In this document: one piece after another, positions 6,982-16,636 of the stretch
Layout of the letters: each line of letters begins with the position of its first letter
Numbering within the stretch: the first letter of the stretch is position 1
Source of the DNA: a virus
DNA: 64,000 bases
Virus record (IMG/VR): IMGVR_UViG_3300042937_001707
Span: 1-64,000 of that record
Direction: 5' to 3' (one strand)
Position numbers and translations under genes: made by a program
Notes under the pieces: model-generated
What the model was told of the DNA's origin: nothing
The model's input: the letters and a program-made list of their open reading frames with translations, nothing else
Databases searched by the model: none

Positions 6982-7008
6982 GGGGAGGGTAAAACCTCCC
7001 CATTTTTA
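6982..7008 (+). terminator. Terminator between convergent gp32 and tape-measure-like gene
   Basis: GGGGAGG-GTAAAA-CCTCCCC then ATTTTT. Confidence 0.75.
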
Positions 7009-9660
7009 TACCAAAGCTGATGAAGAACCTTTTCTATATTGCATTTGGTGTAATACCGAATCTCTAACGTCCATTTTAGATATACCACCAGCTGCAAAAT
7101 CGTCTCCGCCGCCATTTCCACCGCTCACAGGAGCATTGACGTTTATATTTGGCGCTTGAGATTCTTGTGGGGCTTTTATTGCTTCCATTTTCGATTCTTT
7201 AAGCGATTCATTATTTTTTGTGGTTTCTTCTAATCGTTTTCCGGATAATTCTTCTTTAACGTTTGGTTGTAGATTTGCTGTTTCTTCTGGTCTGAAGAAC
7301 TCCGTAGCCTTTCTAACTATTTTTTCGTCAATAGTTTCTTCTGGTCTGGAGGAATCAGTAGCCTTTCTAACTATTTTTTCGTCAATAGTTTCTTCTGGTC
7401 TGAAGAACTCCGTAGCCTTTCTAACTATTTTTTCGTCAATAGTTTCTTCTGGTCTGGAGGAATCAGTAGCCTTTCTAACTATTTTTTCGTCAATAGTTTC
7501 TTCTGGTTTCTTGAGTTTCCTTAACCTAGAATTATCAAAACCTTCAACTCCAGCAAAAGTGAATCCTTCTCCTATAGCAGACAATCCTTGATATAAACCC
7601 TCATCAACCACTGATTTAATATTTCCGGGTTTTGTAATATTTTCAAGAGTAGAACCAAAAGCGTCTTTTAGAGTATCGACCAAAGTTTTTTCTTTTGGTT
7701 GTTCTTCTGTATCTGTTTGTTGTCCTTTTGGCTTTGCTGCATCTCCAGTACTTGGGGTTTCTTGAGCTAGTTCTGTTTCTGTAGAACCTATTGAATATTT
7801 TTTAAGAATTCCTTCTGCAGCGGAAATCCTTTGGGTCATATTTTCTTTCCCAGCTTTTTCGTATTCTTTCGTCCAAATTTCAGTTGCTTCTTTTGCGGAT
7901 TTTGCAGACTTTATGCCTTTATAAACATTTCCGTATTCTTTATGTTTTGTTTGTCCTGTTATTTCTTCGTAGATATATTCTAATTGTCCATTAAGGGTGT
8001 TCCACTTATCACCTTTTCTAGCTTTCAATTCTTTAAATCTAGGACCATCAACAGACCATTGAGCGATACCTCTCCCTGGACCACCACCTTTTTGTTTTTG
8101 GTTGGGATTGAAGGTGGGGCTTTCTATTTTTAAACTTCCAGTAATACCTGCTGCTTGTTCTTTTGTAAACCCTTTACTAACGAAAAAGTCAAAAACTTTC
8201 TTTTCGTTTGATTGTGTTGCTGTTTCTTTTGTTGCAGTTTCTTTTTTTAGCGAGGGGTCTTCTTGGACCTTTTCTGAAGTTTCTTCTTGTTCTTCTTCCT
8301 CTTCTATTTCTGACGGTACATTTTGTTGTTGTGCTGTGACACCTTTCTTTTTGATATCATCTGCAAGTTTTGGCGTTTCATTTTGCTGTACTGGAGTTGT
8401 TTGGGGTGTTTGAGGTAAACTAGGTTCTTTATATGCAGACTCACTTTCTTTTTCTGTTGGTCTTCTTATAGCGACCAATTCGTGATTTTTCTTTTTGGTA
8501 TTTCTTGTAGATCTTGTTACTCCGCCGCCACCTTTTGTACCTTGATTTCCTCCAATTATAGTAATCATGTTTCCGTCTAAAGAAACAACAAAACCGACGT
8601 GCCCCTTATTTTTATCTGTACCTCTATTAAATACAGCTATGTCTCCGGGTTTCGCGTCATTTAAATTTACTGCTTCTCCATAAGTTAAGAAACTTTTTGC
8701 ACTTTTTACTGATTTTGATTTTTTATATCCATTGGCAGATAAGACAGAATTAACGAATGTTGCGCACCAAGCTTCTGATATCCCAAAACCAGAACCCAAA
8801 TTTGTTTTAAAAAATGCTTCTAATTCTTTTTTGTTTGCCTTTTCTGTCATGCCCTCAAATTTTTCGGCAACTTGTACTAACCTTCCAGTAGGTGTTGTTC
8901 CTGCTCCTGGAGAAGTTTGTTGGGAGCGAGTTTCTGTTTGGGTCCCTGTTGTTGGGGTTGTACCTGTTCCGGTTTGTTCTGCGGTTCTTTGTTCCTGGTT
9001 TTCTCCCTCTTCTTCAAACTCTAAACCTAATGTATCTTTTGCGAATTTCTTCGCCTTTTCCCAAGGAGAGTTATTCATCTCTCTATCATCCAACCAATCT
9101 ATCGCTTTATAGATTCCAGCACCGGCAGCACCAAATAAAAACCCTTTTAGAAGTTTTGGTAATAATGACCCTAATAAACTTCCCAAAAATCCTTTACCAG
9201 TTCCGAACGTTCCTCCTATACCAACACCTTCGGACAATTTTAGAATTCCATTATTCATGGACTCAAAAATTTTATAGAATTTTTCTAGGTTTTCTTTTCC
9301 TATCCCAATCCCACCTGCGGTTTTAGTAACTTCAATGTCCTTTGCTTTTGATTCTAGAAGGTTTTGTGTTACTTGTTGACTCGTTGATGTCGTTTCGATA
9401 TAACGTAAAATGTTATTGTTTAAATCGAATAGAAGCCCTTTAATGTTTTCCAATGCCCTTACCATTGCTTCTCCAAAATAATTCGAAGAATTCTCTTTTG
9501 TTGCAGTAGCGTTGGAAGTAACGTTTTGATTGAGGTTTATGGCTCCATAATTTACTAATTGGAGTTTTCCCGATTGAACCAATGACGTTAATATTTGCGA
9601 TTTATCGTCTAAGGATAAATTCCCAATAGCATTTTTGTTGTTTAGTGCTGGTAACGCCAT
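7006..9660 (-). CDS. Tape-measure/baseplate hub (gp29-like) protein with TIGR02594-type (NlpC/P60-like) and phage tail lysozyme domains
   Basis: AWCA.FVN..GD..VF.R..GHVGFV..GGNQ and QAAGI.G....ES..G.GIAQW motifs; lies downstream of gp26/gp51. Confidence 0.7.
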   Translation of the reverse strand: MALPALNNKNAIGNLSLDDKSQILTSLVQSGKLQLVNYGAINLNQNVTSNATATKENSSNYFGEAMVRALENIKGLLFDLNNNILRYIETTSTSQQVTQNLLESKAKDIEVTKTAGGIGIGKENLEKFYKIFESMNNGILKLSEGVGIGGTFGTGKGFLGSLLGSLLPKLLKGFLFGAAGAGIYKAIDWLDDREMNNSPWEKAKKFAKDTLGLEFEEEGENQEQRTAEQTGTGTTPTTGTQTETRSQQTSPGAGTTPTGRLVQVAEKFEGMTEKANKKELEAFFKTNLGSGFGISEAWCATFVNSVLSANGYKKSKSVKSAKSFLTYGEAVNLNDAKPGDIAVFNRGTDKNKGHVGFVVSLDGNMITIIGGNQGTKGGGGVTRSTRNTKKKNHELVAIRRPTEKESESAYKEPSLPQTPQTTPVQQNETPKLADDIKKKGVTAQQQNVPSEIEEEEEQEETSEKVQEDPSLKKETATKETATQSNEKKVFDFFVSKGFTKEQAAGITGSLKIESPTFNPNQKQKGGGPGRGIAQWSVDGPRFKELKARKGDKWNTLNGQLEYIYEEITGQTKHKEYGNVYKGIKSAKSAKEATEIWTKEYEKAGKENMTQRISAAEGILKKYSIGSTETELAQETPSTGDAAKPKGQQTDTEEQPKEKTLVDTLKDAFGSTLENITKPGNIKSVVDEGLYQGLSAIGEGFTFAGVEGFDNSRLRKLKKPEETIDEKIVRKATDSSRPEETIDEKIVRKATEFFRPEETIDEKIVRKATDSSRPEETIDEKIVRKATEFFRPEETANLQPNVKEELSGKRLEETTKNNESLKESKMEAIKAPQESQAPNINVNAPVSGGNGGGDDFAAGGISKMDVRDSVLHQMQYRKGSSSALV
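7280..7507. repeat. 54-bp in-frame tandem repeat x4 (ABAB)
   Basis: Encodes PEETIDEKIVRKAT(DSS/EFF)R four times with alternating variants. Confidence 0.95.
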
Positions 9661-9661
9661 T

Positions 9662-9793
9662 TTAGTTCCTATTTTGACTTAGTTTTTCGTTTTCTTCGTT
9701 AATATGTTGTAATAATAAATTCAAAAACACTTCTCTTTCCCACGGGATCATATTTTCTAGTTCAGATAAACTATATTTGTGATGTTGCATCAT
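9662..9793 (-). CDS. gp51: Baseplate hub assembly protein gp51-like (not in ORF track; frame open back to the gp26 slippery site)
   Basis: Translates as MMQHHKYSLSELENMIPWEREVFLNLL..., with in-frame upstream LSHDNLENYYKTNFA. Confidence 0.8.
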   Translation of the reverse strand: MMQHHKYSLSELENMIPWEREVFLNLLLQHINEENEKLSQNRN

Positions 9794-9840
9794 TGCAAAA
9801 TTTGTTTTATAATAGTTTTCCAAATTATCATGAGAAAGAG

Positions 9841-10560
9841 TTACCCTAAAAAATTATCAAGACCTACAATATCAATATCGTGTACAAACCCACATTTAGA
9901 ACATTTTACCGTTAGGGTTTCTTTTAATACTGGTAAATTGCTGAAAAATTCTTCTACCTTTTTAAATTGATCAATAGACATAGATTCTAAAAATTCTAAT
10001 ACCTCTGATTTTGGCGTTTCGTTTTTGTAATAGAAATTTTGTTCGTCGAATATGTAATCTAATGAGTTATAAATTACCTCTAATGTTAGGGTAACGGCGT
10101 CAGTAATTTCAGTATTCAATTTAGACAATTCTGCAATATCAGGATATTTCATTTTAAACCCAACACTATCCGTTAATCGAATTATGTCGTTATTTTCTTT
10201 TTTGTCTACAGAAACTTCTAATAGGTTTATAGAAACCGGCATTAAGTTCCCGCAAATATTTTCTTCTATTTTATTATTGCATCTATATTTTGTTTCTACA
10301 ATTTCTCCAATAGACCTTGCTCTAAGTTGTAGGAAAAAGTATTCTATGTCTATTTGATTGAGTTTGTTAACGTCAATATCTGAGGTACAACAATTTTTTA
10401 TTATTTGTTTAATATTATTTAAAGCGAATTCTGCGTCTTCAGATTGTTTTGCTAGTAATAGAATTTTTTGTTCTTTTACTAGGAAAGGTCTAAACATAAC
10501 CGTTTGATTTGAAATTGGTAATGTCGTTTCATACAAAGGACTTTCGATTTTTGGTAACAT
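9841..10560 (-). CDS. gp26: Baseplate hub subunit/chaperone gp26
   Basis: LP.I..P.Y, FRPFLVKE.KILL, D.EY.FL.LRARS.GE and C..CG motifs. Confidence 0.9.
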   Translation of the reverse strand: MLPKIESPLYETTLPISNQTVMFRPFLVKEQKILLLAKQSEDAEFALNNIKQIIKNCCTSDIDVNKLNQIDIEYFFLQLRARSIGEIVETKYRCNNKIEENICGNLMPVSINLLEVSVDKKENNDIIRLTDSVGFKMKYPDIAELSKLNTEITDAVTLTLEVIYNSLDYIFDEQNFYYKNETPKSEVLEFLESMSIDQFKKVEEFFSNLPVLKETLTVKCSKCGFVHDIDIVGLDNFLG

Positions 10561-15868: not shown

Positions 15869-16636
15869 ATGGAAAAAACTAAAAATTTCCCTGGGATGGA
15901 TGGGTTTATTTGGTGGACTGGTATAGTAGAAGACCGTAAAGACCCTTTGAAAGTTGGTAGGGTTAGGGTTAGAATTTTTGGTTGGCATAAAGACGATAAA
16001 TCAAACGTTCCTTCTGACGGTTTATTATGGGCGCAACCTGTTATGTCGGCAAACGCATACCAAATTTCTCACGTACCAAAGGAAGGAGAAGTTTTGTTTG
16101 GGTTTTTTATGGATGGAGAATACGCGCAAGTACCGTTTTATATGGGGGTAATTCCAAATATACCAGAAATAAGGTATCCTAAGGAAAAAGGTTTTGCAGA
16201 CCCAGCAACAGAAGAAGAAATAAAACAAAGACCAAGAACATTGCATTCTGGACAAACGAGATATCCTGGAGACGGAGAATTAAATCAGCCAACAATTAGC
16301 AGGTCTGCTAGAAACGAAAATATGGATCAAACGCCATATGGTAAGTCTCATGGAGGGAAATATCCATATGTATTTTCAATACAAACTGAATCTGGGCATT
16401 ATTTGGATTTAGACGATACTCCAAACGCGGAAAGGGTTACTTTAATTCATAGAACTGGAAGTTTTATTTCTATAGATTCTGGAGGAAATATCACCATTTC
16501 GGGTAAAAATGTTAATATAATTGCGACTGGTTCCATAAATAATAAAGCTCCTGGCGGCATTAATGAAGATACTCCGAATCACAAAACTACAGGTACTCAC
16601 ACAGATGCTATTGGTATACACTATAGCGGGGGCTAA
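15869..16636 (+). CDS. gp5: Baseplate central spike gp5 (OB-fold plus short beta-helix, no lysozyme)
   Basis: W.G.VEDR.DPL..GRVRVRI.G.H, GFF.DG..AQ.P and YPY....TESGH....DDTP..ER....H..G motifs. Confidence 0.85.
   Translation: MEKTKNFPGMDGFIWWTGIVEDRKDPLKVGRVRVRIFGWHKDDKSNVPSDGLLWAQPVMSANAYQISHVPKEGEVLFGFFMDGEYAQVPFYMGVIPNIPEIRYPKEKGFADPATEEEIKQRPRTLHSGQTRYPGDGELNQPTISRSARNENMDQTPYGKSHGGKYPYVFSIQTESGHYLDLDDTPNAERVTLIHRTGSFISIDSGGNITISGKNVNIIATGSINNKAPGGINEDTPNHKTTGTHTDAIGIHYSGG

Follow-up and report, generated by a model that had tools for sequence, protein, structure and literature searches.

We propose that the gp26-like gene of a freshwater T4-like phage is a two-product gene, in which a −1 slip near its 3′ end would yield, alongside a 239-aa protein, a 299-aa gp26-51 fusion; we put the probability of this reading at roughly 0.8. 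The gene lies in a stretch of 64,000 nucleotides (positions 1 to 64,000 of IMG/VR record IMGVR_UViG_3300042937_001707; hereafter ‘the window’). The frameshift mechanism is of a known kind, and the evidence for it here is comparative. As regards efficiency, we infer that most ribosomes would end at the TAA at 9843-9841, to give the 239-aa PF12322 protein, and that a fraction would slip one base back on U UUU UUA (9853-9847). These slipped ribosomes would go on to read AGG GUA ACU..., thereby adding a 62-residue helical tail, and the resulting 299-aa product would correspond to T4 gp51 in its full length. The slip is probably stimulated by a Shine-Dalgarno (SD)-like sequence some 8-11 nt upstream of the heptamer through pairing with 16S rRNA, the arrangement of E. 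coli dnaX, and the scheme assigns no part in the slip to a downstream RNA structure. If lambda G/GT and T4 genetics are a guide, both forms might act as non-virion chaperones in the initiation of hub and tail tube, where the extra tail would give the long form a second binding partner. The features on which the argument turns are as follows.

9841..10560, minus strand: gp26-like gene, 0 frame, encoding the short product (239 aa; PF12322 and phrog_150 matches)
9843-9841, minus strand: 0-frame stop TAA of the gp26-like gene
9853-9847, minus strand: putative slippery heptamer T TTT TTA, in X XXY YYZ phase with the gp26-like ORF
9662..9853, minus strand: −1-frame ORF, gp51-like C-terminal tail, predicted helical (63 codons; stop TAA 9664-9662)
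9854..9859, minus strand: TGA TAA in the −1 frame, abutting the 5′ side of the heptamer and closing that frame upstream
9862..9865, minus strand: SD-like AGGT, weak, candidate stimulator, 8 nt upstream of the heptamer
7006..9660, minus strand: 884-aa gene downstream of gp51 (CHAP, PF05257; phage tail lysozyme, PF18013)

The gp26-like protein is matched by PF12322 (T4_baseplate) over profile positions 3-218 of 219, with an E-value of 4.1e-51 and 174.2 bits against a cut-off of 24.5, and by phrog_150 (‘baseplate hub’) with an E-value of 5.5e-56. On the minus strand the 3′ end of its gene reads ...GGT CTT GAT AAT TTT TTA GGG TAA, with the heptamer in the phase that the original prediction had described; the −1 frame, likewise predicted to be open as far as 9662, runs from the heptamer as FFRVTLSHDNLENYYK..., is 63 codons long and ends in the TAA at 9664-9662. 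Since TGA TAA stands directly before TTT TTT, the −1 frame can be entered only at the heptamer or within the two codons that follow it. The −1 ORF is matched by phrog_634 (‘baseplate hub assembly catalyst’) over residues 2-62 of 63, with an E-value of 1.3e-27, and it also matches the C-terminal end of phrog_150, the gp26 family profile, at positions 231-278 of 282. Joined at the heptamer, the conceptual long product comprises 237 + 62 = 299 aa, for which the predicted junction peptides are ...GLDNF(L/F)R and VTLSHDNLENYYK. With A as the Z base of the heptamer in the window, the proposed slip requires the A-site tRNA-Leu to re-pair from UUA to UUU.

Taken by itself, a single heptamer in the window is not beyond chance, since T runs and in-phase heptamers are common: the window has a GC content of 34.7% and 66 runs of six or more T on its minus strand, and gp26 genes contain about 1.7 other in-phase XXXYYYZ heptamers each. 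The significance of the heptamer therefore comes from its conservation across related loci. Our comparison of the junction covers 100 distinct loci of the split type, namely five GenBank phages, IMG/VR contigs and the window itself, which together span cyanophages, pelagiphages, a vibriophage, a rhizobiophage and IMG/VR; the IMG/VR share is the best-scoring 80 of 597, and because these were the best-scoring picks and the loci are phylogenetically related, the counts and p-values that follow overstate their independence. When the 63 residues of the −1 frame were searched by tblastn, 569 phage records were matched, from phages of Synechococcus, Prochlorococcus, Pelagibacter, Vibrio, Sinorhizobium, Methylophilales and Aeromonas, and nearly all of these matches begin at query residue 1, that is, at the heptamer.

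A comparison of gp26 3′ ends among relatives, which the original prediction had proposed as its check, came out in its favour: the heptamer is TTTTTTN in 100/100 distinct loci (Z being C in 80, T in 10, A in 9 and G in 1), and the gp51-like ORF lies in the −1 frame relative to gp26 in 112/112. The 0-frame stop falls exactly 3 nt (one codon) past the heptamer in 91/100 loci, and the −1 frame is closed at a median of 8 codons upstream of it. The codon before TTT ends in T in every locus (AGT 39, AAT 26, TCT 12, GAT 12, GCT 11); the amino acid that it encodes varies between Ser, Asn, Asp and Ala, and the background T-ending fractions are 0.35-0.88. The −1 codon that spans the Z base specifies Arg in 79/100 loci, through CGN in 73 and AGR in 6, CGN going with C at Z and AGR with A; Z thus co-varies with the bases that follow it in such a way that the −1-frame Arg residue is kept, by a swap that is synonymous in the −1 frame and changes Phe to Leu in the 0 frame. 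Across the relatives, conceptual fusions come to 290-340 aa.

The same body of evidence bears on the reading that the arrangement is an artefact or a product of decay, either a sequencing indel or a long gene recently broken into a pseudogene. Homopolymer runs are indeed prone to sequencing error, but four lake metagenome runs from four studies (2016-2024; the DNA of the window may itself derive from some of these runs) yielded contigs that show no difference from one another, and zero indels, over 9600-10000, which excludes a homopolymer assembly error. The arrangement also recurs in 100 distinct loci and in hundreds of isolate genomes, and the gp26-like protein varies little in length (231-245 aa in all of its best 120 homologues), so that the gp26 stop is itself conserved, which speaks against decay. 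Taken together, contig identity, locus conservation and homologue lengths effectively refute this reading, and we give it next to no credence.

Another reading dispenses with recoding altogether and takes the small ORF to be a separate gene with an internal or stop-overlapping start, making a free gp51 of 45-60 aa. Database records do annotate a ‘baseplate hub assembly catalyst’ of its own, at 44-59 aa, and in 48/100 loci an ATG stands at a distance of 3-6 codons past the heptamer, in many cases sharing bases with the gp26 stop (TAATG or TGATG); in these 48 loci a free small gp51 could be an additional product, by coupling. Against this, the other 52 loci, the window included, have no −1-frame ATG before codon 10, the first ATG usually being the conserved Met at codon 20 or 21, and yet they keep the protein sequence from the heptamer on. 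Over codons 4-19 of these 52 loci, the summed entropy is 11.3, 10.7 and 20.6 at the first, second and third positions, and this third-position wobble amounts to coding periodicity ahead of any start codon, as is typical of a frame that is translated.

The window itself is a case in point. Its earliest −1-frame start codons are TTG 9823 and ATG 9793, no SD was found before either of them on the minus strand, and the phrog_634 match from residue 2 places gp51 homology well upstream of both; the original prediction had likewise seen no clear SD at ATG 9793, and gp51-like sequence that appeared to extend upstream of it. A separate gene would also leave unaccounted for the Arg codon kept through CGN and AGR across the last base of the heptamer, the invariance of the heptamer and of its NNT predecessor, and the fusion of the same tail to a PF12322 domain in T4-type gp51 (see below), while promoter-like sites are rarer than in shuffled sequences. 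Independent initiation, which the original prediction had set against its own frameshift, is thus no explanation, given that the protein is conserved upstream of any start in 52/100 loci, and we regard the separate-gene reading as very unlikely.

Turning to elements that could stimulate a slip, an SD-like core (GAGG, GGAG, AGGA or AAGG) is found in 97/100 loci, its end lying 8-11 nt short of the heptamer, and overlaps conserved Glu-Gly codons. At this site Glu is encoded by GAG in 60 cases versus GAA in 21, as compared with 577 versus 1650 elsewhere in the same genes, and Gly by GGA or GGG in 65/99, as compared with 221/624 elsewhere. Codon choice at the site is therefore biased towards an SD-like sequence, with p-values that are inflated by the kinship of the loci. 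The window’s own element is AGGT only, at the position where its relatives carry the GAGG/GGAG type. No downstream stimulatory structure emerged from folding 9846-9750 of the window (z −0.42), and RNAalifold returned zero conserved downstream pairs across 22 loci. A small conserved palindrome, TTGCA-N3-4-TGCAA, does occur about 50 nt past the heptamer, at 9790-9806 on the minus strand and at the same place in relatives; we considered it as a stimulator and rejected it, as it is too distant and coincides with the FAxMQ codons.

These observations also bear on whether the shift is made by the ribosome or by RNA polymerase, which might add one U within the U6 run, such that a minority of mRNAs would encode the fusion in-frame. 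A homopolymer run at the shift site, the lack of conserved downstream RNA structure and the runs of 7 or more T in 10/100 loci would all suit transcriptional slippage of this kind. Efficient transcriptional slippage in bacteria, however, uses runs of about 8-9, longer than the 6 T found here, and the run is exactly 6 T in 90/100 loci (Z being C, A or G); moreover, X XXY YYZ phase and a codon-biased SD-like element are ribosome-level features with no role for a polymerase. Since the run does not exceed six T in 90% of loci, the phase is strict and an SD-like element is in place, we infer that slippage is probably ribosomal rather than transcriptional, and consider the latter unlikely.

Further insight into what a long product might be comes from T4, in which gp26 (208 aa) and gp51 (249 aa) are hub assembly chaperones; the assembly of the hub cannot proceed without gp51, and the virion contains none of it (Leiman et al. 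2010, PMC3004832). Both belong to the same family, PF12322, as the gp26-like protein of the window. T4-type gp26 is PF12322 alone, and gp26 of T4 itself shares its terminal GLxxFF motif with the short product described here, with the difference that T4 gene 26 encodes FF as TTC TTT, without a T run. T4-type gp51, in T4 and in an Aeromonas T4-type phage, is a complete PF12322 domain followed, in one frame, by a C-terminal tail homologous to the small ORF; these proteins bear the precomputed labels PF12322 and PF28602. When the conceptual fusion is aligned with the gp51 of T4 and of the Aeromonas phage, they are collinear and gap-free at the junction, in keeping with the predicted equivalence of gp26 and a fusion of about 299 aa to the T4 pair. 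A PF12322 domain and a gp51 tail in one polypeptide is an architecture that would arise here only if the frameshift occurs.

Gene number points the same way. T4 has two divergently transcribed paralogous genes where the window has one gene and a −1 ORF: in whole-record searches, two PF12322 genes were found in T4 and in the Aeromonas T4-type phage, and one in each of five complete split-type phage genomes and of three IMG/VR records that are 87-100% complete; the 79-kb record of the window phage, 47% complete, likewise gave a single PF12322 match. In a tree of PF12322 domains, T4-type gp26 and the N-domain of gp51 lie across a 93/89 branch from the split-type genes, a topology that would fit a duplication in the T4 lineage; as the tree lacks a root and its branches are very long, we draw no order of events from it.

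To ask what the family might resemble in structure, an AF2 model of the gp26-like protein (pLDDT 87) was compared by VIA-align with 48,161 PDB representative chains. Over residues 1-90 of the model, the first three ranks went to 3fgx (Z 7.3), the HK97 tail assembly chaperone (TAC) 2ob9 (Z 7.2; 83 residues aligned, rmsd 3.9) and YqbN, 3klu (Z 6.7), and the fourth to 5ir0, a Vibrio PLE protein (Z 4.4, the next row having Z 4.1), which is treated as a TAC in a 2026 paper (PMC12987554). The four best matches are thus TACs or their prophage relatives, and the G/GT-type analogy drawn in the original prediction gains support at the level of fold. We regard the fold link as moderate: its Z of about 7 is below 8, and the tool warns that matches of this level can be common. 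Foldseek gave no match in the PDB, no sequence-level link was found between PF12322 and TAC families, and the TAC match was not reproduced with a model of T4-type gp51, for which the search was uninformative because generic helix-loop-helix hits of the helical tail filled the list; that tail is predicted, with high confidence, as four helices.

The gp26-like protein also has conserved cysteines: of C57, C94, C103, C220 and C223, four to five show little or no variation among PF12322 proteins, and CxxC pairs occur in T4-type gp51 too. In its second half the model bears a weak resemblance to zinc-ribbon and DnaJ zinc-finger domains (Z 3.3-3.6), and this half is probably a zinc-binding domain.

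Immediately downstream of gp51 lies the 884-aa gene, which the original prediction had called tape-measure-like. In this respect the prediction fared less well, as the protein shows no sequence or profile similarity to T4 gp29: two comparisons by hhalign with a gp29 alignment (PF25671) gave probabilities of 0.3% and 3.6%, and PHROG and Pfam searches returned the CHAP and lysozyme domains only. There is a weak Atlas lead to PF25671, with a score of 0.87, such that ‘tape-measure-like’ is a positional guess with one weak lead. The protein has a Gly-rich hydrophobic segment and, near its C-terminus, about four copies of an 18-residue PEETIDEKIVRKAT... motif, encoded at 7280-7507 by 4.2 copies of a 54-nt unit in which the 108-nt double units are 100% identical; if the protein were a length ruler, the copy number of this repeat could vary its length.

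The neighbouring genes form a T4-like tail and baseplate module, with gp2 and a gp54-like tube initiator on the minus strand, and gp4, gp48, gp53, a short gp5, gp25, gp6 and gp7 on the plus strand. The gp5-like hub protein (15869-16636, plus strand) is only 255 aa long and has no lysozyme domain; CHAP and phage-tail-lysozyme domains sit instead in the 884-aa protein (7006-9660, minus strand), and from this distribution of domains the cell-wall-degrading activity seems to have moved from gp5 to another tail protein. The whole record, of 78,984 bases, is classed by IMG/VR as a ‘provirus’ at 47% completeness, but the genes it carries are those of a lytic T4-like myovirus; its sequence recurs without change in 20 lake and freshwater metagenome runs dating from 2016 to 2024, and no RNA run was listed among those that contain it.

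If the −1 frameshift does take place, several features of the T4 supergroup would fall into line. Sullivan et al. 2010 noted, and left unexplained, that the gp51 of cyanophages and marine vibriophages ‘miss the first ~200 amino acids’; these residues would be supplied by gp26, which would also explain why cyanophage ‘gp51’ has only 20% of the T4 length. The frameshift logic of tail chaperones would extend to the T4 supergroup, with T4, cited as the exception to it, a derived case in which the two products have been split into genes 26 and 51. It would likewise supply a hypothesis for the function of the essential T4 gp51, as the long, GT-like form of a chaperone. We lean towards the broader view that PF12322 represents the missing TACs of the T4 supergroup, that a −1 frameshift stimulated by an SD-like element alone was ancestral, and that T4 duplicated the gene into 26 and 51.

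There would be consequences for annotation as well, as hundreds of genomes that annotate a start-less ‘baseplate hub assembly catalyst’ of 45-60 aa would need correction. Many GenBank cyanophage records carry no annotation for the gp51-like ORF and others begin it at varied internal codons, at 44-59 aa; Synechococcus phage S-WAM1 (2514-2703) and the S-CAM1, S-CAM4 and ACG-2014 records are cases of these annotations. A joined gp26-gp51 CDS was absent from all the GenBank records examined, and a full-text literature search, with subscription journals outside its coverage, found no published report of a gp26-gp51 frameshift.

Set beside known frameshift systems, the heptamer of the window is identical to U UUU UUA of HIV-1 gag-pol, as the original prediction had pointed out. 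The usual form in phage relatives is U UUU UUC (80/100), which makes the identity incidental, a slippery sequence shared with a eukaryotic system that has a downstream stem-loop. A parallel in geometry is E. coli dnaX, whose −1 frameshift reportedly has an SD-like stimulator about 10 nt upstream of its heptamer (Larsen et al. 1994). This upstream placement is shared, with the element at 8-11 nt in nearly all the loci compared here, where it may play a corresponding role; dnaX differs in having a downstream hairpin as well, which has no conserved equivalent in the loci studied here, and in using the heptamer A AAA AAG.

The −1 frameshift of lambda G/GT, and its conservation among TACs, go back to Levin 1993 and to Xu, Hendrix and Duda 2004, as cited in PMC5009743, where Atkins et al. 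2016 describe the G-T frameshift as conserved in long-tailed phages ‘except T4’. For lambda it is known that the short and the long product each bind the tape measure, that the tube protein is a further partner of the long product, and that the virion contains neither of them (PMC5009743). Lambda gpG/gpGT show no sequence similarity to the window protein, which is larger than lambda-type TACs and has a second, probably zinc-binding, domain that these lack, and the heptamers differ too, G GGA AAG in lambda as against U UUU UUN here. The organisation is nonetheless alike, with a short and a −1-extended product from one gene, a shift near its 3′ end and a place in the tail-assembly module. Given the fold link and the hub-chaperone role of the T4 proteins, a G/GT-like reading of gp26 and its fusion is reasonable, and by analogy the two forms would have binding partners of the corresponding kind.
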